Source of the DNA: an uncultured Candidatus Saccharibacteria bacterium | GTDB taxonomy: Bacteria; Patescibacteriota; Minisyncoccia; UBA6257; 1-14-0-10-44-23 | DNA length: 58,689 nucleotides | NCBI GenBank assembly: GCA_964394435.1 | Contig: CAYMXN010000001.1 | Coordinates: 109,739 to 168,427, forward strand | Reading direction: 5' to 3' | Shown here: in pieces, positions 10,546 to 57,897 of the stretch | Layout of the letters: each line of letters begins with the position of its first letter | Position numbering within the stretch: position 1 is the stretch's first letter | Notes under the pieces: model-generated | Seen by the model: the letters and a program-made list of their open reading frames with translations, nothing else | What the model was told of the DNA's origin: nothing | Database searches by the model: none | Translations under genes and position numbers: made by a program

Positions 10546-10575
10546 AAATACCGCTTGAGGCGGTATTTTGATTTT
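10546..10575 (+). terminator. atp operon terminator
   Basis: aaataccgc-ttgag-gcggtatttt. Confidence 0.75.
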
Positions 10576-10591
10576 GAAGGAGGACCTGCGT

Positions 10592-11056
10592 ATGTCGCGA
10601 ATCCTAAAGCTTCCCCCTGTTCCGCTCTCGCTTTACGGCGAGTCGTTGCGTCGGCCTTTTGCAGGAGTGACTCTTGTCTCTGATGGTTTAGATGTGCGAT
10701 TTGGTGCGACTCCACTACAGTTTTCGCCGGTAATCGGTCCTAGTGAAAATGGGATCGATGGCAACGAACTTGTGCATCGTCTGCATACAGTTCCTGCGTA
10801 TACTGGCCTAAACTGGGGTCAGCGAGCGCTCGAGTTAGCGTGGATGTATCGCGAGGACATCGCACGGGCGAATGTTTGGCCTGTTGGGCGCGTCGTGTAT
10901 TTCCTTAAGACGATTTGGGCGACTAGGAGGGGTGAGCGGTTTGGTTTTTGGATGATGCGCTATAAGGACGGGTATGGTTGGGCGCGTGGAGAGTTTTGGC
11001 TCGACTATTCAGTCGGGAGCATGGATCTTTTCCCGCGACCCACACCTGCCAGTTGA
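10592..11056 (+). CDS. Hypothetical protein (GC-richer cassette with strong SD)
   Basis: GGAGGA sits 8 nt upstream of ATG 10592. The composition is GC-richer than the atp genes, it has its own terminator, and I recognise no family. Confidence 0.5.
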   Translation: MSRILKLPPVPLSLYGESLRRPFAGVTLVSDGLDVRFGATPLQFSPVIGPSENGIDGNELVHRLHTVPAYTGLNWGQRALELAWMYREDIARANVWPVGRVVYFLKTIWATRRGERFGFWMMRYKDGYGWARGEFWLDYSVGSMDLFPRPTPAS

Positions 11057-11060
11057 TTCT

Positions 11061-11095
11061 TCGCCCGCAGAGAGCAATCTCGCGGGCGATTTTTA
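11061..11095 (+). terminator. Intrinsic terminator
   Basis: A tcgcccgc...gcgggcga stem followed by ttttt. Confidence 0.7.
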
Positions 11096-11611
11096 ATTAC
11101 TGCGTTTGAGTGGGGCGACAGATGTTTGTATGTGTTGGCTCGCGTTTTGAGCGGGGTTTTCAGTATTAAACTCAACCGTCAGATCGATATTAACGAGTTC
11201 GTTTGCTCCGCTGTAGCTTTTACTAAAATCGAGATTTGAGACTATTACTCTGCCGGTGTTGAGTGTTGTCGAGGCTGCGGTGGCTTGTTTTATGTAGGCG
11301 GAGTTATCGGCAAACGTAATAACCATTGGGTCGGTAGTGCTTGAGCTTGTCCCGATTTCGAGTCTGTTCGCTGAGACCGTCAAGCTTTGTGCGTCGCGAA
11401 TAGCTTGCTTCATTACGTTGATAATAAAGTTTGCTTCATTGGCGACTTGTCGGCTTGAGTTTTGCTGACTTTGAATACGAGTGATGGTAATCAGTACGCT
11501 TGTAAATAGTGTTATAACGACAAGCGAGAGGCCGACGTAGATAAGGAGTTCGATGAGTGTGAAACCGCTTTTACCTTTGAGTTGAAGCGTTTTTAATTTT
11601 CGAAGAGACAT
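11093..11611 (-). CDS. Prepilin-type N-terminal cleavage/methylation domain protein (type IV pilin/pseudopilin-like)
   Basis: N-terminal KSGFTLIELLIYVGLSLVV motif (G|FTLIE). Confidence 0.75.
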   Translation of the reverse strand: MSLRKLKTLQLKGKSGFTLIELLIYVGLSLVVITLFTSVLITITRIQSQQNSSRQVANEANFIINVMKQAIRDAQSLTVSANRLEIGTSSSTTDPMVITFADNSAYIKQATAASTTLNTGRVIVSNLDFSKSYSGANELVNIDLTVEFNTENPAQNASQHIQTSVAPLKRSN

Positions 11612-11645
11612 ATGTACAAGTATAACACTTCGGAGCGCTTCATTT

Positions 11646-12263
11646 TTATGCCGCAGTTGGGTCGAAAAACATAATCCAAATAGTTTTGATTAGGATTTTA
11701 AGGTCGAGCCAGAGCGTTTGTTTTTCCAAGTATTCTTTATCCAGAGTTATCTCCTTGAGGAATGGCAAGCTTGAGGCGCCGCTTACTTGGCTTAAACCCG
11801 TAATGCCCGCCTTGGCTTTGATGAGTATTGTGAACTCTTTTGGGTAATTGGAAAGCTCGCCTTGTTCGTGGGGGCGTGGGCCGACAAGGGAGAGCTCGTT
11901 TTTGAGTACGTTAATAAATTGCGGGAGCTCGTCGATGCGGAACTTTCTGATAATTCGACCAACTTTAGTAAGGCGTGGGTCGTTTTTGATTTTGAAAAAT
12001 GGACCGTCATTGCGCTCATTCATATGAAGAAGTCCTTTTTTAAGTCTGGCGGCATCAACCATCATCGAGCGGAACTTGTATAGCTGAATCACTTTTCCCT
12101 TGCTGACACGAGCAAGCTTGATAAGGATAGGGCCACGATCTTCGAGCCTAATAGCTATGCCGACGGGTATATAGGCGATACCAAAGACGATAAGACCAAT
12201 GAGTGAGCCGACGATGTCTATGAGGCGTTTTGTGAAGAAGTAGATGGCCGAGTGCGCTTTCAT
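11646..12263 (-). CDS. Sugar transferase (polyprenyl-phosphate hexose-1-phosphate transferase, WbaP/EpsL-like)
   Basis: Bacterial sugar transferase signature: KFRSM, DELPQFINVLKNELSLVGPRP and GITGLSQV. Confidence 0.85.
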   Translation of the reverse strand: MKAHSAIYFFTKRLIDIVGSLIGLIVFGIAYIPVGIAIRLEDRGPILIKLARVSKGKVIQLYKFRSMMVDAARLKKGLLHMNERNDGPFFKIKNDPRLTKVGRIIRKFRIDELPQFINVLKNELSLVGPRPHEQGELSNYPKEFTILIKAKAGITGLSQVSGASSLPFLKEITLDKEYLEKQTLWLDLKILIKTIWIMFFDPTAA

Positions 12264-12314
12264 AATTAGGCTAATGCTATCATAATCTTGAGATAAAGTG
12301 CCAAACTACTTCTT

Positions 12315-13415
12315 ATGCGCGTTGCTTTAGTTCATGACTATTTAAATCAATTTGGTGGAGCGGAGCGGGTTTTGCTTGCGCTGATGGAGCTGTTTCCAAA
12401 TGCGCCAATTTATACGCTTTTGTATGACAAAGAAAAGACGCATGGACTGTTTGAGGGGCGAAGGGTGATTACGAGTTTTTTAGATAATCCGATTACACGG
12501 AAGCATCACCGGCTGTTTATCCCGTTTATGCCTTTAGCTATTAATCGTATGAATCTTGGTAGTGAGTTTGATTTGATTATTTCTGATACCGCGGGCTTTG
12601 CAAAAGGTATCTCATGCGATCAGACGAAAACAAAACATATCAGCTATATTCATACGCCACTGAGATACGCGTGGGAGACGGATGAGTATTTTTCGCACAG
12701 TCTCAAAACAAAAATATTTAACGCGATTTTTAAACCGGCGTTTGCGTACGTGCGGAGGTTTGATTATCAAGTGGCGCAAAAGCCCGACATACTTCTTTCG
12801 AATTCGCAGTTTATCGCCGAAAAAGTGAGGCGGTACTATGGTCGCAATTCAGATGTTTTGTATCCGCCCGTAGATACGAGCGTTTTTTCTCCAGATGAGC
12901 AGATTAAGCGAGGTGAGTATTACTTGGCGGTTGGCCGAATGTTGCATTATAAGCGTTTTGATTTGATTATTGAGGCGTTTAAAATACTTGGATTGCCGTT
13001 AGTTGTTGCCGGTGCTGGGCCAAAAGAAGAAGAGCTTAGGGAGCTCGCCCAAGGTGCTGGCAATATTACATTTTTGCCATTTCAGAAAACAAATGAGGAG
13101 ATGCGAAAGTTATATTGTGGGGCGAAGGCGGTGATTTTTTCACATACTGAAGATTTTGGGTTGGTGCTAGCGGAGGCGCAAGCGTGTGGAGCGCCGATTA
13201 TCGCGTATAACGTGGGAGGTGCGCGAGAGATTGTGTGTGATGAGCGTGCTGGCGTGTTGTTTGATAAACAGAGTGTTGCTGGGCTTGTCGAAGCTGTAAC
13301 TATATTTGAGCAAAAGAAATTTGATCGAGGTTATATCGCGCAGTTGGCGCAGCGGTTTAGTAAGGAGCGATTTGTGGCGGGGATACAACGTATCGTTAAA
13401 GAATTATGTAAATAA
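12315..13415 (+). CDS. Glycosyltransferase family 4 (GT-B)
   Basis: E-x7-E region EDFGLVLAEAQACGAPII and a typical GT4 N-terminus. Confidence 0.85.
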   Translation: MRVALVHDYLNQFGGAERVLLALMELFPNAPIYTLLYDKEKTHGLFEGRRVITSFLDNPITRKHHRLFIPFMPLAINRMNLGSEFDLIISDTAGFAKGISCDQTKTKHISYIHTPLRYAWETDEYFSHSLKTKIFNAIFKPAFAYVRRFDYQVAQKPDILLSNSQFIAEKVRRYYGRNSDVLYPPVDTSVFSPDEQIKRGEYYLAVGRMLHYKRFDLIIEAFKILGLPLVVAGAGPKEEELRELAQGAGNITFLPFQKTNEEMRKLYCGAKAVIFSHTEDFGLVLAEAQACGAPIIAYNVGGAREIVCDERAGVLFDKQSVAGLVEAVTIFEQKKFDRGYIAQLAQRFSKERFVAGIQRIVKELCK

Positions 13416-13457
13416 AAGACCCGCGCTGCATCCGTGTGGATGACTTACGCGCGGGTT
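13414..13457 (-). terminator. Terminator for the minus-strand lipoprotein cassette
   Basis: acccgcgc...gcgcgggt stem with a nested catcc/ggatg hairpin. The A-run on + gives a T-run on the minus strand. Confidence 0.5.
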
Positions 13458-13477
13458 GCGGCCACTAAGTAGTGGTA

Positions 13478-13828
13478 CTACTTGGTGGCGGGGACTGCGA
13501 ACCAGGTGGTTTGCGGTATGGAGTTTTTCCCGTAGCTGGTGACCTTCAGCTCCTGGACCTTCGTTCCGACGGGGAGTTCGGTGGTGGCGAGCAGGGTGTC
13601 CTGCTTCTCGCTGCCACTCCTCCGGACCTGTACCTTGTAGAGGTCGTGTCCGAGCGGCTCGGACTTGACGACCTCCCCCGTCCAGTCGGACGGGGAGACC
13701 TTCGTTCCGTCGTAGATCGTCCTCTCCATCGTCTGGTCGGTCACGGCGGTTTCGCCGTTGCCGCACCCGGCGAGGGTGGCCACCACCAGGACGAGGAGGA
13801 GGATGGAGGGAATGCTGAAACGGTTCAT
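13478..13828 (-). CDS. Small lipoprotein (GC-rich cassette)
   Basis: Signal peptide with a lipobox (LLLVLVVATLAGC). The composition is strongly GC-rich, an AAGGGG SD is present, and a consensus promoter lies upstream. Confidence 0.6.
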   Translation of the reverse strand: MNRFSIPSILLLVLVVATLAGCGNGETAVTDQTMERTIYDGTKVSPSDWTGEVVKSEPLGHDLYKVQVRRSGSEKQDTLLATTELPVGTKVQELKVTSYGKNSIPQTTWFAVPATK

Positions 13829-13876
13829 CTGACCCCTTATCTCTCCGGGTTGACCGGAGCAAATGTTGACTTAGTC

Positions 13877-13905
13877 ATTATAGCATATAAGAGTATATTT
13901 GTCAA
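13877..13905 (-). promoter_or_regulatory. Consensus promoter TTGACA-17-TATAAT (minus strand)
   Basis: The reverse complement of tgtcaa (13900-13905) and attata (13877-13882), with a hand-counted 17-nt spacer. Confidence 0.65.
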
Positions 13906-13960
13906 TATTTAGAGTAAGGGACTGGTGATTGAGTTTTTGAATAAGCCGGAATAATAGGCA

Positions 13961-13989
13961 TTGACAGGATTGGTATAGTGTGCTATAAT
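13961..13989 (+). promoter_or_regulatory. Consensus promoter TTGACA-17-TATAAT (plus strand)
   Basis: ttgaca at 13961-13966 and tataat at 13984-13989. Confidence 0.65.
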
Positions 13990-13995
13990 GTATTT

Positions 13996-14197
13996 ACCCT
14001 GGAGGATCCGTCATGAACGGTCCGTAAGGCAAGCTCCTGGCTGTGGGGAACGGTGCGCCTTTTGCGTTGATTACGAGCTCGTTGGGGCTCGCGCGAAGTC
14101 CAAAAGACTCGCCCTCGCAAATACCTGCAGCCGGGAGCAACCCCCTCTTCCAACCCCACCTTGTGCTATATGCGCTCGGTGGGGTCTTCTTTTTTTG
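13996..14197 (+). ncRNA. Candidate ~200-nt structured small RNA, class unknown
   Basis: A perfect promoter lies upstream and a ccccacc...ggtgggg plus T-run terminator lies at 14154-14197. A long-range 11-bp stem pairs gctcctggctg (14031-14041) with cagccgggagc (14128-14138). No convincing ORF is present. Confidence 0.4.
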
Positions 14198-14242
14198 TGC
14201 GGGCTTGCTAAATCTCTAAAATCAGGTATCATAGCTGTATTC

Positions 14243-14627
14243 CAGAAGACCCCATCTTCGGAATATCTTGTTCCGCGTTGCAGGTCGTTTGCGGCCACTG
14301 CTAGGCGTAGGGTGTGAGGCAGAAGCTCGTGCTTCGACTCGCAGCCTGCAACAACGCAGGGGGTGCAAACAGTCGCAACCCATCGGGATCGGAATAATTC
14401 TCATAATCTCCTTGTCGGAACGTCCTCGAAGTACATAGAGTACTCCTTGCGGCGTTCCTCCGCGAGCTTAGAAGAATTATTCCTGATCGCGGTTAAAGCT
14501 ATTCCGAAGATGAGGTCAAGCCTAAGCGCCACGAGGGCCCTGGAGCGTTAGTCAGCACCTTTGGTGCATATCGGGCGTAAATCAATAGCTTTTTGGCTTT
14601 TATTTACGCTCCGAAAGGAGTTTTTTA
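14243..14627 (+). ncRNA. Candidate ~385-nt structured RNA or rpsB-tsf leader, class unknown
   Basis: Several exact long-range stems: gttgcagg (14277-14284)/cctgcaac (14345-14352), ggaataattct (14391-14401)/agaattattcc (14472-14482), and ggaacg/cgttcc nested inside. It ends in gcgtaaat/atttacgc and ctcc-gaaa-ggag plus T-run hairpins just before rpsB. The start coordinate is a guess based on a weak TTGCTA-16-TATCAT. Confidence 0.35.
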
Positions 14628-14656
14628 TTTATTAATAAATCATTAATTATAATTGT

Positions 14657-15430
14657 ATGGACGAAGTTAAAAACGATAAGTCAGGCATGCCAGTTGAGCC
14701 AGTCGCCCCAGAGCGTACGGCTGATACGGCTGTATTAGAAGAGATGACGAAGGCCGGTATTTTGTTCGGTCGTCGCCGTATGTGGGGTAACCCAAAGATG
14801 AAAAAGTACGTGTACACGACGCGTAATGGTTTTTCGATCTTTGACCTTACTCAAACGCTTGATGCGATTGAGAAGGCTTGTGAGTTTCTAAAGACAATTG
14901 GTAAAAACGGTCAGCAGGTTCTTTTTGTCGGCACGACGCCAGCCAGTCAGGTGCTCGCCCAGGAGCTTGGCACGAAATTTGGTTTTCCATTTGTTACCGA
15001 GCGTTGGCTTGGTGGTACGCTTACTAACTACGACACGATTTCTGCCCGCTTACAGTTTTATCTCCGCTTAAAGGCGGACCATGCGGCTGGTCGTCTTGAT
15101 AAGTACACGAAAAAGGAGCGTACAGAGATGATGAAGCAACTCGAACGCTTGACCCGTTTCTTTGGTGGTCTTGAGCGTATGATTACGCTGCCTGCGGCAG
15201 TTGTTGTTCTCGGTGCTGATGCGCACAAGATCGCGATTGCTGAAGCGAGCCGTGCGAAGATTCCTGTCGTTGCGATTGCTAACACTAACGCCGACCCAAC
15301 AACGATTAAGTATGTAATTCCGGCTAATGACAACAACCAGTTGAGTTTGCGCTGGATTAGCGAGAAACTTTCAGCAGCTTTAGTCTCGGGTATCAACGAG
15401 CGAGGTGCGGTTGCTCCAATTAAGAAGTAG
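14657..15430 (+). CDS. rpsB: 30S ribosomal protein S2
   Basis: Typical S2 core (AGILFGRRRMWGNPKMKKYVYTTRNGFSIFDL). It has an N-terminal extension, so the true start could be the internal ATG at 14687. Confidence 0.93.
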   Translation: MDEVKNDKSGMPVEPVAPERTADTAVLEEMTKAGILFGRRRMWGNPKMKKYVYTTRNGFSIFDLTQTLDAIEKACEFLKTIGKNGQQVLFVGTTPASQVLAQELGTKFGFPFVTERWLGGTLTNYDTISARLQFYLRLKADHAAGRLDKYTKKERTEMMKQLERLTRFFGGLERMITLPAAVVVLGADAHKIAIAEASRAKIPVVAIANTNADPTTIKYVIPANDNNQLSLRWISEKLSAALVSGINERGAVAPIKK

Positions 15431-17254: not shown

Positions 17255-17309
17255 GCTGTTGATACTTGCTGATTTTACTTCAGAGTTGGATTTTCTTCAA
17301 GTAAAGAAA

Positions 17310-17337
17310 GCCCCGAACCTTTTTTGGGTTCGGGGGC
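17310..17337 (-). terminator. Hairpin terminator (bidirectional shape)
   Basis: gccccgaacc-tttttt-gggttcgggggc. Confidence 0.6.
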
Positions 17338-17669
17338 TAGGGCTGACAGGGCTTGTCGATGCCCATCGCGCTTTCAAAGTGGCGTTCCACTACCATGATC
17401 GCGTGGTTGGCGCTTTCGATGTCGATTACGCCATACGGCTCGAGCTCGGGAGGCACTTCGATCGCCACCACTTCTTCTTTTTCGGCCGAGCGCGGCTTTC
17501 TGATTTCCTCGACGCCGATCGTGATTTGTTTGCCCTTGGCAAACATCAGATAGTAGGCTCGGCCCTCTTTTTGTGGCTCTTGATGCGACTGGAGTCGGCC
17601 TTGAAGCCAGGGGAGGACGCGTGCGGGATCGATCTTTGTGATCACCCGCGGGAGTTCTTGCTTGCTCAT
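17337..17669 (-). CDS. Hypothetical protein (GC-rich cassette between two tRNA genes)
   Basis: AGGAG SD 7 nt upstream of the ATG, GC-rich composition, and no recognisable family. Confidence 0.5.
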   Translation of the reverse strand: MSKQELPRVITKIDPARVLPWLQGRLQSHQEPQKEGRAYYLMFAKGKQITIGVEEIRKPRSAEKEEVVAIEVPPELEPYGVIDIESANHAIMVVERHFESAMGIDKPCQP

Positions 17670-17720
17670 CGCGGGTACTCCTATTGAGGATGCTGCCAGG
17701 GTTTGGCTTGTTCTGCCTCC

Positions 17721-17748
17721 AGTATCGCAAAGTTTTATTGGTTGTCAA
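17721..17748 (-). promoter_or_regulatory. Putative promoter TTGACA-16-GATACT (minus strand)
   Basis: The reverse complement of tgtcaa at 17743-17748. Confidence 0.45.
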
Positions 17749-18923: not shown

Positions 18924-19319
18924 ATGAGTTTTGCTGAAGCGGTTGAAAAAATCTCGCAAGCAAGTACAAAGTCTGACGCTTTGCGTGTTGCGTACGATAT
19001 TTTAAGCACAAAGTATCATGGTGGGCGTGTAAAAACCTACGCGTTATTTTGGCGGTTGTTTGAAGATACGTTTGAAAAACTTTGGAGCCGAAGTGGCTTT
19101 TTGCACTGTACTAAGATTAACCGGGTGTTGCGTGAGCTTTTGTTGGCGAGTGGTAAGTTTGCTCCTAGCGATATTCGCACTCGTTGGACGTTGGTTTGGT
19201 ATGTTTCGCCTCATCAGTATATGCAGGTTCGTGTTGAAAATGAGCAGTGGGTGAGTGTTGATATTTGGGCAAAAGCGTACGGGATTCAATTTGGAGATTA
19301 CGCGCGCGGGTTTAAATAA
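18924..19319 (+). CDS. Hypothetical protein, possibly a transglutaminase-like Cys-His-Asp fold
   Basis: Ordered FLHC...SPHQY...VDIW residues resemble a transglutaminase-core triad, but this is a weak call. The ATG lies 4 nt after tRNA-Trp. Confidence 0.35.
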   Translation: MSFAEAVEKISQASTKSDALRVAYDILSTKYHGGRVKTYALFWRLFEDTFEKLWSRSGFLHCTKINRVLRELLLASGKFAPSDIRTRWTLVWYVSPHQYMQVRVENEQWVSVDIWAKAYGIQFGDYARGFK

Positions 19320-19366
19320 AAAAACACCCTGCGTGACAGTCGTCGCACAGGGTGGTGGTATCTAGG

Positions 19367-20029
19367 TTATTCGCCTTGGGCTACTTTTTCTTCCGCAAGG
19401 ACTGCGTAGATGCTTGGGTCGCGTTCGATCTCCTTAACTGCATCGAGAATCTCTTCCTCTTCGCTTGTTTTTGGCAGCGCAAGGAGTGCTTGGACGATTT
19501 CAGGAAACACTTTCTTGACTCTTGCGAAGTCAAAGCCAAATAGAAGTTCGATGGCCCGTTTTCGGTCTTGCTTAAATGCGAGAGGGAAGGCTCGGGTACG
19601 GAAGCGGAAATCCCAAGTACTCTTCTCTCCAAGTTCCCTGTCGGGCCATAGTCCGCTTACATACAGCCATTCTTCAACCAGTGTTTCGAACTCGATCCCG
19701 TCAATCGGGTCGTTTTCCTCTGGCCTGCTCTTTTGTTCTGCCGCTCTTCTTTCTTTTTCGTTTGGCTTGAAGACGATGGTTTTCTTCTCTTTGTTTTTCT
19801 GCTTTCGTTCCTGATTGAGCGCGAGGCTCAAGAGATAGAGCGTCGCAAATCCTATAAAGCAGGCCTCGGCGCTTATGTGTAGCGGCTCGATCATTCTAGC
19901 GATCGCATCTATCGCTTTCATGAAGAGAAATGTGGCGAGTATTGATGCTACGCATATCAGTATCAGTAGAATCGCCCCAACTGCTATCTTGCCCATCTTC
20001 GACAGGATTGCGATAACCCTTGCTTTCAT
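19367..20029 (-). CDS. Hypothetical membrane protein (cassette downstream of tRNA-Arg and its repeat)
   Basis: Two N-terminal hydrophobic helices, a Lys/Glu-rich linker, and AGAGGA 5 nt upstream of the ATG. Confidence 0.5.
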   Translation of the reverse strand: MKARVIAILSKMGKIAVGAILLILICVASILATFLFMKAIDAIARMIEPLHISAEACFIGFATLYLLSLALNQERKQKNKEKKTIVFKPNEKERRAAEQKSRPEENDPIDGIEFETLVEEWLYVSGLWPDRELGEKSTWDFRFRTRAFPLAFKQDRKRAIELLFGFDFARVKKVFPEIVQALLALPKTSEEEEILDAVKEIERDPSIYAVLAEEKVAQGE

Positions 20030-20092
20030 CTTTTCCTCTTTTCAAGGATCAAAAAGTAGGCCTAGGCTACTTGGGTTCAGCTTTGATTGGAC

Positions 20093-25797: not shown

Positions 25798-25863
25798 TAA
25801 GTTAGTCTGAAAATAAAATGACCTCGCTACCTTTGCTGGTGGCGGGGTCATTTGTATTTTGCT

Positions 25864-26250
25864 CTACTGTTGCTGAAAGTCGTGCCAACCAAATCCTCTA
25901 CTTGGGAGGAGTCCATCTCCTCCGTCGTAGTTGATGTGGAGGCGGGCGACCTCGCTTCCTTTATCTATGGCCACGATGCTTAGCGTGAAGGGGGCTGATG
26001 GCAGCATCAGCGCCTTTTCTTCTTTCGGCTTAAGCTCGGCAACGAGCTTGTTGTTGCAGTAGATCGCGAGTTGTGCGCCTTCTGGCCAGTGGGTGCACGC
26101 GGTGCTGTTGCCGATTTGCATCGTTCGCATTTCGGGATGAGCGTAACTTGCGATTTGTGCTTGTGTGTAGCTCGAGCGCACGCCATGGGCGCACGCGGTA
26201 ACGGTAGCAACAAGGCTGAAGAGCAGGGCGATACGAAGGACGTTTCTCAC
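25864..26250 (-). CDS. Small lipoprotein (GC-richer cassette)
   Basis: GTG start preceded by AAGGAG. The signal peptide has a lipobox (LFSLVATVTAC). Confidence 0.6.
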   Translation of the reverse strand: MRNVLRIALLFSLVATVTACAHGVRSSYTQAQIASYAHPEMRTMQIGNSTACTHWPEGAQLAIYCNNKLVAELKPKEEKALMLPSAPFTLSIVAIDKGSEVARLHINYDGGDGLLPSRGFGWHDFQQQ

Positions 26251-26298
26251 GTGAATCTCCTTGCGCTTTGCGCAGGTGAGTTCTTTTGTTCTAATTTA

Positions 26299-26327
26299 GT
26301 TATCGTATATTATTATATTTTTGTCAA
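26299..26327 (-). promoter_or_regulatory. Putative promoter TTGACA-17-GATAAC (minus strand)
   Basis: The reverse complement of tgtcaa at 26322-26327. Confidence 0.45.
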
Positions 26328-26396
26328 TTCACAGAAAGGGGGTAATAAAAAAGAGGCTCCTCGGTGAGTTGTGAGGTAGCCTCTGTACTACTTGTC

Positions 26397-26831
26397 TTAC
26401 GAGCCCTTGCCGATTGCGAATTGGACATCAACGAAGGCGAAGTTTGGGTCGGGGTGGCGAACATTGCCTTGTTCGACGACTTCGGCCTTTATGACGTAGA
26501 TCTGTGTATCCTTCGAGCCAAAGAACTCTTCGCAATGGTCGTTGAGGTGTTTTTCTACCGCCAAGCGCAACTGTTCTTCGTCGATGTTTTGTCCGCCAAG
26601 TGAGTCGGGAATCTTAGCGAAAACCCAGTTTGGTTTTATGACCGTCTGACTTTCACTTCTCCCTTTTGCGACAACTACCAGCTTGTCGCATTCGAGCGTG
26701 CGCAACTCGGGCTTGCTCGGCGTCTCTGAATGATAGACGATGACTTCTTTGCTAGGGGCAAGAAGCATGCCGGCAAAAAAGGTGGTGATTGCGATCATCG
26801 GCGTTATGACGATGTTCTTGCTGTAGCGCAT
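26397..26831 (-). CDS. Membrane-anchored hypothetical protein (cassette)
   Basis: ATG 26831 is preceded by GGAG. It has an N-terminal TM helix (ITPMIAITTFFAGMLLA). The track ORF start at 26897 has no SD. Confidence 0.5.
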   Translation of the reverse strand: MRYSKNIVITPMIAITTFFAGMLLAPSKEVIVYHSETPSKPELRTLECDKLVVVAKGRSESQTVIKPNWVFAKIPDSLGGQNIDEEQLRLAVEKHLNDHCEEFFGSKDTQIYVIKAEVVEQGNVRHPDPNFAFVDVQFAIGKGS

Positions 26832-26903
26832 TAGGGTGCTCCAATTTGAACCCAAAACAACCACATTAGTTATTATGTATTTACTAGTTATTGTCAATTA
26901 GAG

Positions 26904-27775: not shown

Positions 27776-27804
27776 TTGGCAGAATACAACAAATGTTGTA
27801 CTAT
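27776..27804 (+). promoter_or_regulatory. Putative promoter TTGGCA-17-TACTAT
   Basis: Hand-counted spacer. It is followed by a gcgcac-tttg-tgcgcg hairpin and a GGAGG SD. Confidence 0.5.
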
Positions 27805-27856
27805 ACAGATAGTACGTTTTCAGGGCGCACTTTGTGCGCGATTCTGGAGGTGGTTC

Positions 27857-28774
27857 ATGCGAAGGCTCATTTCGGTCATCGCTTTGGCCGCGGTGCTTTC
27901 GCCCGCGGTCATCGTGTCGGCAGCTCCGACGCCGCAGGTCAAGTTTAGCGCCAAGACGGTTGGCCTAGACGTTTCTTGCGAAATCGTTTTCTCGGTGTTT
28001 GATCAGCTCGAGGAGTTCAAGACGTTCGAGCTTTGTGCCAAGCCCGGGTATGTGTTTCCGGCGGTGGCGAGCACGACGATGCAGATGCGTGGCAAAGATG
28101 AGAAGGATGTCCGGACGTGGGAGGTCGCTCGATCGGATGACGGTGACCGTATCGTTTTTCGGATTGACGAGCGCAAGCCCGTTACTAACGGGAAGTACAC
28201 GTTCATGTTCCAGTTCGCTGATTCGGTTGGGTCGGGCTTGGTGTCTGCGAGCCTGTGCGCTTCGGTGGCGTTGGCCCCCGGCAAGAGCCTGGTGATGTGG
28301 AGTAAGGTTGTGGACGACAATGCGGGTCAGATTCCGCAGATTCGTCTCGATCTGTTTGCTGCGGGCTTCAATCGCGGAGGGTCGCTACTTGAGCAGGGTT
28401 CGGTTACCAAGCTCTTGATCGATGTCGACCCGGCGTTTGTCGGCTTGGAGTATGAGCTGCAGATTTCGAACTCTCGGTTCGGACTCGGGCTCGCCAGCCA
28501 GGCGGCGCTGGCGATGACGCCGGTCGCAGCAAACGATGAGCAGTTGAAGCTGCTCATGAGCTGCTTCAGCTATCCGAGTGGTAAGATTAACCGCGAAGGT
28601 CGCAGCGACCTTTTGCCGGTACTCGATACCACTCCGCTCAAGGTGGCGAAGGTGTCGACCGGACTCGACTTTGAGGTTCGGTTGATGCTCAGGCGCAACG
28701 GCGAGCTGTGGCTGGCGAGTAAGCCTCTGCGTATCAGCGTTGTGCCGAAAGGCGCGAAGCTGGCGCGCAATTAG
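27857..28774 (+). CDS. Secreted hypothetical protein (GC-rich cassette)
   Basis: GGAGG lies 6 nt upstream of ATG 27857. The signal peptide is MRRLISVIALAAVLSPAVIVSAAP. No family is recognised. Confidence 0.6.
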   Translation: MRRLISVIALAAVLSPAVIVSAAPTPQVKFSAKTVGLDVSCEIVFSVFDQLEEFKTFELCAKPGYVFPAVASTTMQMRGKDEKDVRTWEVARSDDGDRIVFRIDERKPVTNGKYTFMFQFADSVGSGLVSASLCASVALAPGKSLVMWSKVVDDNAGQIPQIRLDLFAAGFNRGGSLLEQGSVTKLLIDVDPAFVGLEYELQISNSRFGLGLASQAALAMTPVAANDEQLKLLMSCFSYPSGKINREGRSDLLPVLDTTPLKVAKVSTGLDFEVRLMLRRNGELWLASKPLRISVVPKGAKLARN

Positions 28775-28788: not shown

Positions 28789-28819
28789 CCCGCTCCGATG
28801 CAAATCGGAGCGGGTTTTA
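28789..28819 (+). terminator. Intrinsic terminator
   Basis: cccgctccga-tgcaaa-tcggagcggg-tttt. Confidence 0.8.
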
Positions 28820-28823
28820 TCTT

Positions 28824-31289: not shown

Positions 31290-31294
31290 AGGCG

Positions 31295-31696
31295 TTAGGC
31301 GTTAGTGATTTTGCGTGCGTCTAAGAGCTTTTGGTAGTACTCATCGATAAGCCGATCGTGAAGGGCATCGATCAAAAATGGGTCGTTTTTTGCTTGTTTG
31401 ATTGCTGATGCGATACCTTGGTCAAATGCGATTTGAATGAGTGTAGCGATGGCTTGTTCTTGGATAGGGGTGAGATTTGTGGCTTGCGCTGAAGCTGTTT
31501 GTGGTTTTGTGCTTGATGTAGCTGCTGGCGCTTGAGTTGTCAGAGTTATTCGTGCGTGCTCGCTAAATACATTTTTAAAAACTTCTTTTTCTGGCAGCGC
31601 TGGGGCACCTGATTCAATCAGTTGCTGTTTCTTGGCTTGGAGGCGCGCTTCGAGTTCAAGAATTTCTTTATTCAGAGGAGAGATTATTTCTGCCAT
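31295..31696 (-). CDS. Hypothetical helical protein, co-oriented 5 nt upstream of the ATPase
   Basis: 133 aa with an N-terminal coiled-coil-like segment and a T/S/A/Q-rich linker. Confidence 0.5.
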   Translation of the reverse strand: MAEIISPLNKEILELEARLQAKKQQLIESGAPALPEKEVFKNVFSEHARITLTTQAPAATSSTKPQTASAQATNLTPIQEQAIATLIQIAFDQGIASAIKQAKNDPFLIDALHDRLIDEYYQKLLDARKITNA

Positions 31697-31811
31697 ATAG
31701 TACTTAGTATATCATATGAGCTAATCTGTTTTAGCTTTCGTGCTTTTAGTGGAGCTAAATTTCCTACTTTTCCTACTTGTATGATTAAGATTTTTCTGAT
31801 ATGCTCTGGGT

Positions 31812-35545: not shown

Positions 35546-35573
35546 GCGTTTTTCATAGTGGTATACTTATAGT

Positions 35574-37304: not shown

Positions 37305-37477
37305 GCTCTGACAACCAGTTTTCCCATCATAGTGGGATTGCAATTTTTACCTACACCTCTCCGTTACCCTAAACGGCAGCCATTCGTTAGTGGTTGTTGT
37401 CGATGATAGCAGAAAGGTATTTTTTTGTCATCATTATTCTGGGGCTCGCATAGTGATTGTGATATACTTATTTGTAT

Positions 37478-40400: not shown

Positions 40401-41332
40401 TTGCCGAGGAGACTAAGCTATTTGTTGGTTTGCCGAAGGTGATCGCGACGCGCGAGGCTGATTTAGCTAAGCTTGGTAATTTTGATGAGCTTAGCCGTCG
40501 CTTACAGCTGCTTGAGATGGCGAAGCGTACCCATTCACTTATGGAGCGTTTGGCCGGCGTAATTGGCAGTGGTATTGATGTGTATGCGTATGCCGAGCAC
40601 GAACTTAGAGAGAAGCACAAGGTTGATGTTCGCTCTGAATACTCTAACAAGTTTTTGAGATTTATTTTGCCACGATTTTCGAAGTGGAAGTATAACGCTG
40701 AATTTAGAAAAGCTAGCGAAACTCTTTCGAAGGTAAGCAGTGCGCAAGAGCAGCTTGCGAAATTAAAAGAGAGTCGCGATAAAGTCGTCACAATGGTCTT
40801 TAGTGATGGATTTTTCCCAATGCAGGCTGTTCAGCAAAAGATGCGCGAGCGTGTTGCGGCTGAACTCAAGCGTCTTTCTGGGTATGATCAGGCGACTGGT
40901 GCTGATAAAGCTTTTGATTTTTCTCTTGATGCGACTAACGTTCCTCAACAAGACTTGGCAGCGCTTGAAAACGCGCAAGCATACTTTGACCGTGTGCGCG
41001 AGGCGAGTGCACAGCCAGGTTTTGCGTATGATGCGACGATTGAGGCTGATTATCAGCAGCGTCTTGATCGTGCCTTTGATCGCCGGGCGCACTTTGAAAT
41101 TGGCGAGCTCATTAAGGGTGTTTCGCTTGGAGCTACTCCGCTAGCTGATCTTGAAAAAGCCCTTGAGCCATTCTTGAAAACACCTCGCTTCTTTGGAACC
41201 CGTCGTAATGAGGCGGCTCGTGCCTTTATCAAAGAGAGCTTAAAGGCTCGACTAGCTGATAGTAAGCTTGATGTACGCAAGAAGATGCTTTTGTCGCGCA
41301 TCTATGAGCGATTTAATACCGCTAACGCCTAA
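37478..41332 (+). CDS. Giant charged alpha-helical repeat protein (~1284 aa), no signal peptide
   Basis: Long uninterrupted frame that is E/K/R/A-rich. Three tandem ~85-90-aa modules each end in LP.EWY.AL(M/I). An ATG at 37478 follows the in-frame TTG at 37472. Confidence 0.75.
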   Translation: MTPESDLANLAKPDLPKTKENLASLPADTQERLSRLVGEYQKDIIAAHSEGLSPADLRIRDHEIFKKHIGSITGLLREVYSGVSEDSPVVVSLMGTHPGTISSSAPEKKAVEAGQNAELAEKKVRYPSFKADPAITFDDLQNDLTRHPALVDYDIEHALSALHEGNATPLQNLARSAEIFTSGLSKNIDRIAAEKRAGAISPKKPIVVERPAPIVRESVRSIDEVYAELAIAPGVSKKVDGYIRDCQQEHARIDYDIATRRRAGESVSNDDQLELHRRAVERYNERILGVLRSSNRRILAVPDEIENLLFVTGKLEATPQPVLARSLSGEAPPESVSLGKKRAAMSRGGEEKGSSREKNNKPMRDKIKVSEGSSKASSAPVEQTVASSDEKVFERPRVDDLKLDARSQAEIDEIRSQAREEIDRVGANAARFTSRRGGPSLKDVLDHIREKNARKILHILSREGNTAELLPEAWYQELIAPPNENAIVAPERPKLSDLRLSKAQNNSIEELLKEARENAYMIDRKPDASPEAKADELQRMRDYFAGQVMRVIRGHNPQVNRLPSEWYNALMGEQEPPRAKKKFKTGPSGKVLITPNPTMTTSLGYPANTVEIVDKPKTVAAEKAKEPVIIEVKPVEASGEKRPEISSLTLSKKQRADIEALIKQSRENLYFIRRSADIPAEQKEADIRHSQDYAATEIKRILRVHNENVDLLPQEWYDALMGEQAPEGAVSTAAPATPEVVKPAAPEATKKPEVAPKIELTIEQQIAKLEAEKVRVLARMEEVGHQQHADEGDLRSSLKLKAREFDERLAALRKQLPVVEATPISKPIEGGDNELSSAERVGMRMPESRAAIRASQQIESSITSVSEQQIDAMLNNVGFMDFLNSRATRRDAAGALVYPEISAIIGNPQQADWVRAAQIFDGYTAMFEAGPAIKLAYQEKFKKDTGLEMSDEDFESVDAYLASEAIKNPGRVRYFAEETKLFVGLPKVIATREADLAKLGNFDELSRRLQLLEMAKRTHSLMERLAGVIGSGIDVYAYAEHELREKHKVDVRSEYSNKFLRFILPRFSKWKYNAEFRKASETLSKVSSAQEQLAKLKESRDKVVTMVFSDGFFPMQAVQQKMRERVAAELKRLSGYDQATGADKAFDFSLDATNVPQQDLAALENAQAYFDRVREASAQPGFAYDATIEADYQQRLDRAFDRRAHFEIGELIKGVSLGATPLADLEKALEPFLKTPRFFGTRRNEAARAFIKESLKARLADSKLDVRKKMLLSRIYERFNTANA

Positions 41333-41337
41333 CTTCT

Positions 41338-41616
41338 ATGACAAATAATCTTGAAATGAAAAAGCTCGAGCAGTTAATTAAGGAGCAACGCTTTGAAGAG
41401 GCGAAAGCGATTTTAGATGCATTTTTTGCCAAGGAGTGGACGAAGGAAGAAAAGGGTGAGATGTATGTTCAGCTTATGATGATGTATATGCAAATTACTA
41501 ATCGGTTAAACGAGGAGTATTTACAGACGCTGGATGAGACGATTGCCACGATTAAAGAAATTAACACTTCGTATGACGCGGCGGTTGCGAAAGTTAAGAC
41601 TAAGAGCGCTCGCTAG
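41338..41616 (+). CDS. Small helical hypothetical protein, 5 nt downstream of the giant gene
   Basis: 92 aa, predicted all-helical. The tight spacing suggests co-transcription. Confidence 0.5.
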   Translation: MTNNLEMKKLEQLIKEQRFEEAKAILDAFFAKEWTKEEKGEMYVQLMMMYMQITNRLNEEYLQTLDETIATIKEINTSYDAAVAKVKTKSAR

Positions 41617-42930: not shown

Positions 42931-42996
42931 GCATTTAGTATATCACTTTTGACATACCTTATTCACAGTAAGCCGCAGTTATCTTGTTTTAAAATG

Positions 42997-43078: not shown

Positions 43079-43115
43079 TACGGGTGATGCGTCTAATTTT
43101 GTTTATTGCTTTGTT

Positions 43116-43186
43116 GCCTTCGCTCGCAGGACAGAGTAGTCCAGCTCGCTCTTGCGCCTCGCACTAAACGAAATTATATCGCATCC
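43116..43186. repeat. Direct repeat copy 1 (71 nt), repeat-family member E4a
   Basis: Identical to 43253-43323 except for one position (43182 c versus 43319 t). It carries the family blocks ccttcgct and cttgcgcctcgcac. Confidence 0.9.
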
Positions 43187-43252
43187 ATGCCTTTCTTTTG
43201 CTATGCGTTAAAGAATCCTGCAACGCATCTCTCGTTTATCGATTTTTTTACC

Positions 43253-43323
43253 GCCTTCGCTCGCAGGACAGAGTAGTCCAGCTCGCTCTTGCGCCTCGCA
43301 CTAAACGAAATTATATCGTATCC
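43253..43323. repeat. Direct repeat copy 2 (71 nt), repeat-family member E4b
   Basis: See copy 1. The 137-bp period and more weakly similar ~30-nt left flanks suggest a 2x tandem unit. Confidence 0.9.
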
Positions 43324-50636: not shown

Positions 50637-51077
50637 TTAGTGTTTGAGCTTGAGCTGAAACACGCCTGCGTAGCGTTCGGTAAAGCCCAGTTTCTTGTAG
50701 AGGGCGTGCGCGGCAGTACGCATTGGATTGCTAGTGAGTTCTACAACATCACAGTTTTTTGTGCGGGCGATTGAGATCGCATACAGCATCATTGCTTCGG
50801 CTACTTTGTGTCCTCGGTGTTCCTGATCGACTACGACGTCGTCGATAAGTGCTTTATATGCGTAGCTTAGCGTGGGAATTACGTTTAGACAGGTGAGTCC
50901 GATAACTTTCCCATCTTTGTATGCGACGATGAGATGGGCGTTGATCGCCGTTCGGTTTACTTCAGCCGCCGAAATGCGATGTTTCTTACTTGGCGAAAGC
51001 TGGTCGAGTAGTTCATTGACTCGCGTAACATCATTGCCGCCAAGGTGGTGAACGTCGCGGATGTCTGCGTAGGGCAT
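50637..51077 (-). CDS. GNAT family N-acetyltransferase
   Basis: The acetyl-CoA motif region VVVDQEHRGHKVAEAMM and a typical ~146-aa size. Confidence 0.85.
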   Translation of the reverse strand: MPYADIRDVHHLGGNDVTRVNELLDQLSPSKKHRISAAEVNRTAINAHLIVAYKDGKVIGLTCLNVIPTLSYAYKALIDDVVVDQEHRGHKVAEAMMLYAISIARTKNCDVVELTSNPMRTAAHALYKKLGFTERYAGVFQLKLKH

Positions 51078-56151: not shown

Positions 56152-56172
56152 TTGTTTCATTGTTTTACGTAT

Positions 56173-56553: not shown

Positions 56554-56560
56554 TCAACTA

Positions 56561-56585
56561 GCCCCGCCTTCGGCGGGGTTTTTAG
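56561..56585 (+). terminator. Intrinsic terminator after rplS
   Basis: ccccgcc-ttcg-ggcgggg-ttttt. Confidence 0.8.
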
Positions 56586-56647
56586 TTGAATAAAAAACAA
56601 TAAATAAAAATGGGGCGCTACACGAACTTCGTGTGCGCCCCGGAACT

Positions 56648-57031
56648 TCACGGGCTGCGGACGGTCGCTCCCTTGAACGGCCAGCCAGCGTAGACGTAGA
56701 CCTCGACCCGCTTGCCGGCGGGGTTGGTCGCGTGCGCGGTGAACCGCGCGACGTCGTCCTTGCTGCCACCGCGCCAGCCGATCGCGAGCCAGTCGTGGCT
56801 CTCGATCGTGATGTTGCTGAAGCCCTGCGTCTCCAGCGCCTTGATCGCCGTGTCTTCGCTGACGAAGAGGCCTCGTCCGAACTGGTACGTTGCGACGAGA
56901 AGTACGAAGATCACGACACCGACAATCACGAGGAGGTTGCCGGCGAATCTGCTCAGGCGACCGCCTGCATTTCCTCGACGTTTCTGTAGGATGATGCGAT
57001 CATCGCGAAATTCCTTCCAGCTGTCACCCAT
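56648..57031 (-). CDS. Membrane-anchored hypothetical protein (GC-rich cassette)
   Basis: ATG 57031 is preceded by AAAGGA. It has a TM helix (LLVIVGVVIFVLLVATY), a perfect consensus promoter upstream and a terminator downstream. Confidence 0.5.
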   Translation of the reverse strand: MGDSWKEFRDDRIILQKRRGNAGGRLSRFAGNLLVIVGVVIFVLLVATYQFGRGLFVSEDTAIKALETQGFSNITIESHDWLAIGWRGGSKDDVARFTAHATNPAGKRVEVYVYAGWPFKGATVRSP

Positions 57032-57071
57032 GGCAGTATCCTTTCGAAAATGGAATTGTTGCCTATCTGGC

Positions 57072-57100
57072 ATTATAGCACATAATTCTATATGTGTCAA
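57072..57100 (-). promoter_or_regulatory. Consensus promoter TTGACA-17-TATAAT (minus strand)
   Basis: The reverse complement of tgtcaa (57095-57100) and attata (57072-57077), with a hand-counted 17-nt spacer. Confidence 0.65.
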
Positions 57101-57178
57101 TAGATGCGTTTAGGTTTTCGCATAGATAAATTAGAGAGTCTATACAAATTGTAAAAAGTGAATATAATCTTACAGTAA

Positions 57179-57260
57179 GCCCAGGTGGCGAAATTGGCAG
57201 ACGCACTACCTTGAGGTGGTAGCGCCGAAAGGCATGCAGGTTCAAGTCCTGTCCTGGGCA
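57179..57260 (+). tRNA. tRNA-Leu(GAG)
   Basis: Hand fold: acceptor GCCCAGG/CCTGGGC, anticodon arm CTACC-TTGAGGT-GGTAG, a long variable arm, and T-arm GCAGG-TTCAAGT-CCTGT. Confidence 0.85.
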
Positions 57261-57265
57261 CAGAT

Positions 57266-57375
57266 TGACTCATCTTTCTACTCGCACGCTTTGTCGCTGC
57301 GACCTTGTAGTACGCTCTCGCTAAAGTACAACTTCGGTCTTGCTTCGCGCGTGCGAGCAGAAACCTAGAGTCACT
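57266..57375. repeat. Imperfect palindromic repeat element E6 directly behind tRNA-Leu(GAG)
   Basis: Arms ctcgcacgc (57281-57289)/gcgtgcgag (57349-57357) and gactc/gagtc. The centre gtagtacgctctcgctaaagtacaacttcggtcttgc aligns with the E1 centre gtcatacgcttcgcttagagtatgacttcgaccttgc. A T-run follows at about 57383-57392. Confidence 0.7.
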
Positions 57376-57438
57376 TAGTGTCTTTATTTTTTGTGTTCCA
57401 CTAACGATAGTTTACTACTGGTTAATTTGTATATTTTA

Positions 57439-57467
57439 TTGACAAGCTTTACTTTTTGGTTTATTTT
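57439..57467 (+). promoter_or_regulatory. Putative promoter TTGACA-17-TATTTT
   Basis: Hand-counted spacer, upstream of the 57496 cassette. Confidence 0.5.
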
Positions 57468-57495
57468 GATTTTGTCCAAATTCGGGAGGTTTCCA

Positions 57496-57897
57496 ATGCG
57501 TAATGGTAAGGCGGTTGTGTTGCTGCTCGAGGATGGGGAGTTTGAAGGGGGGTTGGTCCAGGATTGCCTGGCGCAATTTCCTATCGAGCTTCTTTGGGCG
57601 AAGACGATTTATGAGGGCGGTAAGCTCTTTGACACGAATCGGGACGTCATCGACCTTGTCGCGCTTGATGGTGTCATCCATGAAGCGGGGTTTGATCGTC
57701 CGCGAAATGGCATCGCCCTTGCGCTGCACATCTTTCAGGTACAGCGCTGGAGTGGTCTTGGCATCGCTACCTCGTGCGTGGCTGATAAGCGCAGCGAGAT
57801 GATGGAGTATGGGTGTCAGCATGCGTGTGCAGACAAGCGCGATCTTGGAGGGATGATCGTTCAGCTGCTACATGATGCGGGAAAGTTGTCTGCTTGA
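57496..57897 (+). CDS. Stand-alone receiver-like (CheY-fold?) protein with a degenerate acidic pocket (GC-richer cassette)
   Basis: GGGAGG lies 7 nt upstream of the ATG. The pattern VVLLLEDGE...DLVALDG...IATS...K loosely follows the response-regulator receiver layout. This is a weak call. Confidence 0.4.
   Translation: MRNGKAVVLLLEDGEFEGGLVQDCLAQFPIELLWAKTIYEGGKLFDTNRDVIDLVALDGVIHEAGFDRPRNGIALALHIFQVQRWSGLGIATSCVADKRSEMMEYGCQHACADKRDLGGMIVQLLHDAGKLSA

Follow-up and report, generated by a model that had tools for sequence, protein, structure and literature searches.

The stretch analysed here (58.7 kb, called the window below; GC content 0.466) comes from an uncultured Candidatus Saccharibacteria bacterium, and its closest genome record is, by annotation, an uncultured Candidatus Saccharibacteria metagenome-assembled genome. 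The window carries an F-type ATP synthase operon, rpsB-tsf, rplS, topA, dprA, parB, genes for GT4 glycosyltransferases, a DUF4012 protein and a VirD4/TrwB-like ATPase, and 12 tRNA genes. A sequence-only reading had singled out nine GC-rich single-gene cassettes, each led by a Shine–Dalgarno (SD) site, in a backbone of SD-less genes. We number them C1 to C9 in the order of that list and compare them with 48 curated backbone genes of the window. The pattern is real and statistically strong, and we tentatively regard seven of the nine loci (C2, C3 and C5–C9) as one class of expression unit. The nine units, with open reading frames (ORFs), product lengths in amino acids (aa) and GC content at third codon positions (GC3), are as follows.

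C1 (marginal): 10577..11094, plus strand; SD AAGGAGGA 10577-10584 (SD–anti-SD duplex dG -11.7); ORF 10592-11056, 154 aa, cytoplasmic, W/R/G-rich; terminator 11063-11094; directly follows the atp-operon hairpin 10550-10564 and has no promoter of its own; GC 0.540, raised through codon positions 1 and 2 only, GC3 0.516.
C2: 13418..13905, minus strand; promoter TTGACA-17-TATAAT 13877-13905; leader hairpin 13843-13859; SD 13833-13838; ORF 13478-13828, 116-aa lipoprotein with LAGC lipobox, GC3 0.889; terminator 13418-13456.
C3: 17303..17748, minus strand; promoter TTGACA-16-GATACT 17721-17748; SD AGGAG 17678-17682; ORF 17337-17669, 110 aa, cytoplasmic, GC3 0.694; terminator 17303-17335; flanked by tRNA-Tyr and tRNA-Thr.
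C4 (marginal): 19318..20070, minus strand; upstream hairpin 20051-20070; SD AGAGGA 20034-20039; ORF 19367-20029, 220 aa, two transmembrane helices; terminator 19318-19354; GC 0.483 and GC3 0.529, both in the backbone range.
C5: 25810..26327, minus strand; -35 box TTGACA within 26299-26327, -10 box ambiguous; SD AAGGAG 26257-26262, overlapped by a leader hairpin; GTG-start ORF 25864-26250, 128-aa lipoprotein with VTAC lipobox, GC3 0.636; terminator 25810-25853.
C6: 26347..26897, minus strand; -35 box TTGACA within 26872-26897, -10 box ambiguous; SD GGAG 26839-26842; ORF 26397-26831, 144 aa, N-terminal transmembrane anchor, GC 0.506, GC3 0.634; terminator 26347-26383; tRNA-Ala lies 275 nucleotides (nt) upstream.
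C7: 27776..28825, plus strand; promoter TTGGCA-17-TACTAT 27776-27804; leader hairpin 27825-27839; SD GGAGGTGG 27846-27853; ORF 27857-28774, 305 aa, signal peptide, GC3 0.732; terminator 28789-28825.
C8: 56602..57100, minus strand; promoter TTGACA-17-TATAAT 57072-57100; SD AAAGGA 57039-57044; ORF 56648-57031, 127 aa, transmembrane helix and small alpha/beta domain, GC3 0.797; terminator 56602-56641; adjoins tRNA-Leu(GAG).
C9: 57439..57950, plus strand; promoter TTGACA-17-TATTTT 57439-57467; SD GGGAGG 57484-57489; ORF 57496-57897, 133 aa, cytoplasmic, GC3 0.597; terminator 57911-57950; separated from C8 by tRNA-Leu(GAG).

All nine ORFs proved intact at the coordinates first proposed, with the proposed SD motifs 5-9 nt before the start codon; their strands and frames are correct, as GC content at the three codon positions (GC1, GC2, GC3) follows the pattern GC1>GC2<GC3 in those frames only. 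Cassette GC ranges from 0.483 to 0.630, against a backbone mean of 0.455 (range 0.401-0.501; Mann–Whitney U test, p=5e-6), and cassette GC3 from 0.516 to 0.889, against a backbone mean of 0.448 (range 0.346-0.544; p=4e-6). Each of C2, C3 and C5–C9 (GC3 0.60-0.89) lies above every one of the 48 backbone genes, whereas C1 (0.516) and C4 (0.529) fall within the backbone range, so that the expected distinctness of GC3 holds for seven of the nine. The GC content estimated by eye, mid-50s to low-60s %, was right for six or seven of nine and too high for C4 (0.483) and C6 (0.506). Third positions are C-rich in several cassettes, GC3 reaching 0.89, and the first two positions are enriched too (GC1/GC2 0.599/0.412 vs 0.545/0.372 in the backbone).

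An SD–anti-SD duplex with free energy (dG) of -5.4 kcal/mol or lower is formed upstream of 9/9 cassettes; among backbone genes only 6/48 have one, in agreement with the supposed SD-less backbone, and at least two of these six ‘SDs’ are the 3′ end of a tRNA and a terminator stem. Duplexes of that strength are found for 12% of random 18-mers of the window and for 19.5% of 18-mers within cassette coding sequences. The association of SD sites with high GC3 that the sequence-only reading had proposed to look for is significant within the 58.7-kb window (SD presence vs GC3 > 0.55, Fisher p=6.5e-6), all seven genes above 0.55 being SD-led. The SD-led genes are a small minority, ∼9/57 in the window.

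The promoters set the cassettes apart as well. Of the 15 exact TTGACA copies in the window, six stand no more than 100 nt upstream of a cassette start (6/9) and none does so for a backbone gene (0/48; p=2e-6); in C7 the -35 box is TTGGCA. The two perfect TTGACA-17-TATAAT promoters reported earlier are present at 13877-13905 (C2) and 57072-57100 (C8). Of the seven cassettes said to have a TTGACA/TTGGCA promoter, all have the -35 box, but in C5 and C6 the -10 hexamer at 17-nt spacing is poor (GATAAC and AATAAC). We found no promoter upstream of C1 or C4, where there is a terminator-like hairpin only. Terminators had been assigned to most cassettes; by sequence, an intrinsic terminator follows 9/9. 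Leaders of the seven promoter-bearing units are ∼20-45 nt long, often with a stem-loop, and stem-loops immediately 5′ of the SD are conserved in the leaders of C2 and C7. The -35 box, the SD-bearing leader, the GC3 and the terminator thus give four independent signals separating cassettes from backbone.

Backbone genes look largely leaderless besides being SD-less, judging by their upstream regions. Of the backbone genes, 27/48 have a -10-like box (in many cases TGnTATACT) whose end is 4-13 nt upstream of the start codon, against a background of 16% and 0/9 cassettes; no -35 box goes with it. Extended -10 boxes at 31697-31720, 35550-35573, 42931-42950 and 37455-37477 are examples of such leaderless-looking starts. 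Operon-internal backbone genes have no SD at all. A mild tenth candidate is the GNAT acetyltransferase gene at 50637-51077 (minus strand): it is monocistronic, lies on the strand opposite to its neighbours, has an AAGGA SD (dG -5.6) and the top backbone GC3 (0.544), and is not preceded by TTGACA.

Presence and absence of the cassettes were compared in sister genomes, as had been proposed. L002 is more distantly related (65-75% nucleotide identity where stretches match); here C1 is replaced by a helix-turn-helix gene in the slot that follows atpC, and the space from GT4 to rpsB, where C2 would be, is empty. The C1-replacing gene of L002 is bracketed, at 11700-12080, by two copies of hairpin ACATACTTACAAACTGGAGTTTGT. 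In L008 (∼85% nucleotide identity) C7 is kept, while C5, C6 and tRNA-Ala are absent from the syntenic part; beside C7 this genome has a cassette of its own (7938-8377; TTGACA-17-TATAAT, GGAGG leader and terminator) with an 88-aa ORF (8023-8289, minus strand in the locus, GC3 0.83), at a site that is empty in the window. The context upstream of C7 is different again in L029.

The same units are conserved elsewhere. L034 has a C2 orthologue, again between GT4 and rpsB; its promoter and leader hairpin are the same and its GC3 is 0.891. L026 keeps the order C8, tRNA-Leu, C9 (GC3 0.85 and 0.67), with the same TTGACA-17-TATAAT and AAAGGA SD for C8 and an AGGAGG SD for the C9 orthologue. The C7 orthologues in L008 and L029 have GC3 of 0.72-0.73. 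At ∼30% amino-acid identity, L028 carries genes for a C5-like lipoprotein and a C7-like protein side by side, next to the gene for a protein homologous to the 1286-aa surface protein; both come with a promoter and SD of their own (GGAG for the C5-like gene) and have GC3 of 0.60-0.62, compared with 0.33-0.38 in the flanks. In L027 the C8 homologue is also a GC-rich island with promoter and SD, and SD-led genes are again richer in GC3. With C2, C5, C7, C8 and C9 orthologues at the same loci, with conserved promoter, SD, GC3 and purifying selection, the recent piecemeal acquisition first proposed is not supported for these five. We had also considered two 1286-aa ORFs as a related pair; they are unrelated and the equal length is a coincidence.

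The prediction of six envelope-type products was borne out: C2 and C5 have lipoboxes (LAGC and VTAC), C7 has a signal peptide, and C4, C6 and C8 have transmembrane anchors. The other three products (C1, C3, C9) look cytoplasmic. Between the window and L008, the ratio of nonsynonymous to synonymous substitution rates (dN/dS) of C7 is 0.12; comparison with L026 gives 0.32 for C8 and 0.20 for C9, and comparison with L034 gives 0.43 for C2; for C1, C3, C4 and C6, coding support comes from their own sequence signals alone. The C3 protein is a singleton cluster. Searches with all nine proteins against Pfam, NCBIfam, PADLOC and PHROGs returned only signal-peptide noise and a weak match of C8 to phrog_902 (E=5.8e-5).

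The C8 family (53 matches) consists of ∼100-aa proteins with a transmembrane helix and a small alpha/beta domain, weakly related to the gp39.1-type proteins that T4-like phages and a jumbo Xanthomonas phage encode. It is spread over unrelated genomes and T4-like or jumbo phages; among the 53 matches the one organism-named source is Candidatus Parcubacteria. The AlphaFold model of C8 is confident (predicted local distance difference test score, pLDDT, 89.5), and a fold search with it gave no PDB match at E <= 0.001 (best 0.17). The C7 model (pLDDT 68) is a predicted all-beta tandem sandwich with only generic tandem Ig/FnIII-like matches (TM-score ∼0.2), which would suggest a surface protein and nothing more specific. 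An exhaustive search of 1.84 billion representatives produced three clusters of C7 homologues, all of them syntenic relatives or of unknown source; C2 had two matches only. Protein-level homologues in the searches with C2, C7 and C8 are 26-72% identical. Scans of viral contigs with these three proteins were empty, a metagenome scan with the CYTH neighbour gave nothing and one with rpsB gave two short loci.

Public assemblies carry antisense ORFs at 13472-13912 (plus strand) and 26089-26603 (plus strand), where C2, C5 and C6 lie. These calls are a gene-calling artefact of the kind to be expected when the model has learned from the low-GC3 backbone. Since the antisense ORF is annotated in its place, the exact C2 protein does not occur in the protein collection.

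The junction between C2 and rpsB holds two further structured elements. A non-coding unit at 13961-14196 (plus strand) has a third perfect TTGACA-17-TATAAT promoter, a GC-rich RNA of ∼200 nt and a terminator at 14154-14196; it is cassette-like in build and folds strongly (z -4.4), has neither an ORF nor an Rfam match, and is entirely missing from the same junction in sister L034. The unit may hint that the design itself, not the cargo, is reused. Just upstream of rpsB lies an RNA element with promoter and terminator, conserved in four lineages:

Window: 14205-14625, plus strand.
L002: ∼14680-14826.
L032: ∼330-470.
L034: 137-302.

The window copy of this element is split by a ∼270-nt insertion, which folds into a single long hairpin with its arms at 14248-14277 and 14488-14517 (fold z -9.7) and may be a mobile structured element. 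Rfam searches of the whole window, and permissive ones of 13850-14700, detected tRNAs only.

The sequence-only reading had taken the cassettes for genes captured piecemeal from a high-GC, SD-using donor, possibly an actinobacterial host, at tRNA-proximal hot spots. Homology searches found no actinobacterial homologue for C2, C7 or C8; for C1, C3–C6 and C9, searched in profile libraries and 90% identity clusters only, no donor lineage appeared. Five cassettes (C3, C4, C6, C8 and C9) do adjoin tRNA genes, as stated, but this is not above chance (5/9 vs 14/48, p=0.14). The repeat family said to accompany the cassettes flanks none of the nine, and within the window no integrase, recombinase, att-like repeat or mobility gene lies beside them. 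The signs of third-position GC and AT skew are those of the host in 9/9 cassettes (three on the plus and six on the minus strand). As the skew sign flips with gene orientation, it points to long exposure to the host mutational regime and not to donor codon preference. This strand asymmetry at third codon positions is unusually strong window-wide (GC skew ∼+0.36, T > A on the plus strand) and equally strong for genes of both orientations; cumulative skew climbs monotonically over the 58.7 kb.

The direction of compositional change comes from a three-taxon parsimony analysis of C7 alone, pairwise strong/weak (S/W) counts being directionless. Synonymous changes numbered 43 from GC to AT and 24 from AT to GC; the sample is small, parsimony inflates common-to-rare changes and the backbone control has 126 codons only. 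GC-to-AT changes make up 0.64 of the total, less than backbone rates would predict (0.77; p=0.019) and more than an even share (0.5; p=0.027). From the rates per site, C7 would settle at an equilibrium GC3 of ∼0.64; the adjacent VirD4-like gene, compared across these three genomes too, would settle at 0.48. GC3 of C7 is in slow net loss, towards a plateau above that of the backbone. For the C2 pair, an ancestor with an impossible GC3 > 1 was considered and dropped, since site counts allow decay from ∼0.97. The C8 family was compared across genomes (GC3 of the gene, then GC of the locus):

L035: 0.49; 0.41.
L025: 0.63; 0.53.
L022: 0.64; 0.60.
L027: 0.79; 0.465.
Window: 0.80; 0.466.
L026: 0.85; 0.53 (a 1.3-kb contig, mostly cassettes).

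The last three are the C8-carrying genomes that resemble the window. GC3 of the family is 0.79-0.85 in low-GC genomes of the candidate phyla radiation (CPR) and lower, 0.63-0.64, in genomes of higher GC; a donor signal fading on arrival would show the opposite trend.

Folding of the coding sequences was compared with synonymous-codon permutations that keep protein, codon usage and GC3. Cassettes have a median z-score of -2.2, and 15 backbone genes have one of -0.7 (p=0.0007); in GC-matched genes taken from other genomes the median is -0.9 and the mean -1.15, leaving a cassette excess at p=0.043. These controls cut the mRNA-structure excess, which we had considered as a strong class property, to marginal, with the exception of C7. 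In three C7 orthologues z is -7.0, -6.0 and -6.0 (-2.5 in L028), and the consensus fold, with 13 compensated pairs, is nearly as stable as the single-sequence folds.

The reading we favour, though it falls just short of being probable in our judgement, is that the seven loci C2, C3 and C5–C9 are a distinct, maintained class of self-contained expression units for small, mostly envelope proteins, possibly of old foreign origin. Each unit would consist of a sigma-70-type -35/-10 promoter, a short leader, an SD, a GC3-rich ORF and an intrinsic terminator, and its cargo would be a small lineage-restricted protein, in most cases a lipoprotein or a secreted or membrane-anchored protein. C1 and C4 would share with the class only SD and terminator. 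The backbone would be expressed in another mode, from an extended -10 box directly before ATG (leaderless), or without SD inside operons. The units may be seen as a flexible pool of the clade, gained, lost and swapped among sister genomes, yet long-standing and kept. A fixation bias, in place of a recent donor whose signature is fading, would uphold at least part of their GC richness; the candidate force we favour is selection for stable, structured, highly expressed SD-dependent mRNAs, by analogy with lpp and ompA. High expression, mRNA stability, selection on GC3 and an envelope function are to be taken as predicted properties of the units. An old foreign origin from a GC-richer, SD-using source is plausible, above all for C8, because GC1 and GC2 are raised and C8 has phage relatives; the searches pointed to no particular donor, and it would not be the actinobacterial host.

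Several points weigh against this reading. Promoter strength and mRNA stability are read off the sequence. Raised GC1 and GC2 are accounted for at least as well by descent from a genome richer in GC as by selection on synonymous sites, and the net GC-to-AT flux of C7 (1.8:1) is compatible with slow amelioration. Excess mRNA structure is strong and conserved for C7 only; it is not conserved in C8 orthologues. The rpsB, tsf, rplS and atp genes of the window, known for high expression, have ordinary GC3 and no SD, so high expression alone need not require this design. Support from other genomes is lacking for C3 and C6, C1 and C4 stand outside the class, and the evidence base is 58.7 kb of genome.

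A somewhat doubtful alternative would explain the same cassettes as old horizontal acquisitions that are still ameliorating: they would have come at different times, before the splits between the species compared, from unidentified GC-richer, SD-using donors or mobile elements, their composition being an unselected, fading relic and their SDs being retained because they are functional. GC enrichment at all three codon positions speaks for it (by the Muto–Osawa and Lawrence–Ochman regressions, the codon-position GC of the cassettes corresponds to a genome of ∼54-59% GC), as do the patchy distribution among sister genomes, the occurrence of the C8 family in unrelated genomes and phages, the 43:24 excess of GC-to-AT changes in C7 and the compatibility of the C2 pair with decay from GC3 ∼0.97. 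A passive relic is hard to reconcile with orthologue pairs that have identical GC3 after 25-30% synonymous divergence, or with GC3 still raised at ∼30% amino-acid identity, where neutral amelioration should be complete. The host strand skew in 9/9 cassettes, the C7 GC-to-AT share below neutral expectation (p=0.019) and the lack of a donor for C7 or C2 among billions of proteins are further points against it, and exact consensus -35 boxes, present in no backbone gene, are unlikely as passive baggage. The cassettes are old conserved accessory genes and not fresh imports from an actinobacterial host. Recent piecemeal capture of envelope genes at tRNA hot spots could appeal to GC3 of up to 0.89 with C-rich third positions, to the tRNA genes adjoining five cassettes, to a large serine recombinase against tRNA-Tyr in L002 (16690-18276; the same tRNA adjoins C3 in the window) and to breaks of public short-read assemblies at tRNA-Tyr and tRNA-Arg, either side of C3 and C4. 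It fails because of the age of the cassettes (five are syntenic in other species), their adaptation to strand skew, whose sign turns with orientation, the absence of a donor (no actinobacterial homologue for C2, C7 and C8, no profile-library match for the others) and the tRNA statistics (p=0.14), and the window has no integrase, att-like repeat or mobility gene beside any cassette. We consider such capture decidedly improbable, and for C2, C5, C7, C8 and C9 it is largely refuted.

GC-biased gene conversion, in which repeated homologous replacement in recombination-active, exchanged slots lifts GC3 without mRNA selection, is an unlikely explanation. It agrees with slots that vary between sister genomes, with competence-type genes (DprA, PilO-like), with the fixation bias of C7 towards GC and with the lower synonymous divergence of C7 (dS 0.51) than of the larger neighbouring genes (0.85-1.28). 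It leaves the SDs, -35 boxes, leaders and terminators unexplained, and the reported effect of such conversion on bacterial GC3 is a few percent, not +0.2 to +0.45. That the cassettes are structured non-coding RNAs or annotation artefacts in GC-rich DNA is hardly credible. In favour of this, some assemblies do have C2, C5 and C6 called on the antisense strand, cassette RNAs show structure, and the ORF-less unit at 13961-14196 has the same perfect promoter and a terminator together with a strong fold. A non-coding RNA identity is countered by coding signatures, namely dN/dS of 0.12-0.43 and codon-position GC periodicity in the proposed frames only, and further by lipoboxes, signal peptides and transmembrane segments, by protein homologues at 26-72% identity, by the confident C8 model (pLDDT 89.5) and by Rfam matches that are confined to tRNAs, with none in a cassette. 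For C2, C5, C7, C8 and C9 the non-coding reading is refuted.

Among known systems, phage morons are reportedly (Hendrix and colleagues) autonomous promoter-gene-terminator insertions in lambdoid prophages. The cassettes resemble them in being single genes with their own promoter and terminator, unlike their flanks in composition, placed between conserved neighbours, present in one genome and absent from the same junction in a relative, and often with an envelope or host-interaction product. They differ in lacking a prophage context, the flanks being atp, rpsB, rplS, tRNA and glycosyltransferase genes; several are found across species under purifying selection, and PHROG support is limited to the weak C8 match. 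Islets of horizontal gene transfer of the Lawrence–Ochman type share with the cassettes atypical GC at all codon positions, an ORFan-like or patchy distribution and variable slots; cassette GC3, however, does not show the expected faster decay and is conserved between orthologues, the cassettes follow the host strand skew, and no donor or mobility genes were found. Integron cassettes are also single-gene units varying between relatives, but they are promoterless, carry attC and are arrayed by intI, whereas the units described here have promoters and neither a shared 3′ recombination-site repeat nor an integrase.

The E. coli genes lpp and ompA are monocistronic and strongly transcribed, with structured, long-lived mRNAs for abundant small envelope proteins. 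Judged by their sequences, C2, C5, C6, C7 and C8 would match this scheme in being monocistronic, with a strong promoter, a terminator and a small envelope product; a 5′ leader stem-loop is a further likeness, as is, clearly for C7 and marginally for the set, mRNA structure beyond expectation. Differences are that there is no sequence relationship and that three of nine cassette products look cytoplasmic. Actinobacteria and Deinococcus-Thermus mix leaderless and SD-led initiation, and GeneMarkS-2 models leaderless genomes. These groups likewise have two initiation modes per genome, with a -10 box directly before the start of leaderless genes; in the window, by difference, the SD-led minority (∼9/57) is set apart by GC3, -35 box and terminator.

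Three other features of the window lie outside the cassettes. The VirD4/TrwB-like ATPase gene (DUF8128; 28824-31289, minus strand) has its nearest species-representative relatives in records labelled Harrisonbacteria/Paceibacterota or unclassified (61-65% identity), while Saccharibacteria-labelled records, sister L008 excepted, reach only 45-46%; these identities suggest that the secretion gene may have been exchanged between CPR lineages. Motif TAACGCCTAAC stands directly before start codons at 31290-31312 (the VirD4-like gene) and 41315-41337 (a 92-aa ORF at 41338); both genes come immediately after another gene, and the motif may be a coupling or re-initiation signal. In the interval from tRNA-Leu(CAA) to the parB-like gene, an 89-nt direct repeat occurs at 43098-43186 and 43235-43323; its two copies are 90% identical and 137 nt apart.

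We searched the literature on Saccharibacteria for leaderless genes, GC-rich cassettes or the use of SD sites and found nothing. The anti-SD motif is detected less often only in a Parcubacteria subgroup (PMC9297842).

It is possible, though on the unlikely side, that two expression systems operate side by side in this clade of Saccharibacteria: a leaderless, SD-less and -35-less majority, and a small maintained set of SD- and -35-dependent, GC3-rich, structured monocistrons for small surface or secreted proteins, whose GC would be held by mRNA selection and not inherited from a donor, and which would serve as an interface with the host that is prone to turnover. Should the two modes be confirmed across the genome, the combination of -35 box, SD leader, GC3-rich ORF and terminator would give a sequence rule for finding envelope or secreted proteins that are small and evolve fast. 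These would be the best candidates for proteins that mediate attachment to the host bacterium. Such units are mis-called when a gene caller has been trained on the backbone, as with C2, C5 and C6, placed on the wrong strand in public assemblies. The cassettes also advise caution, for a GC-rich island in a reduced genome is not always a recent transfer from the host. They would offer a natural system for asking why a lineage that is nearly rid of Shine–Dalgarno initiation keeps the SD for a few genes.

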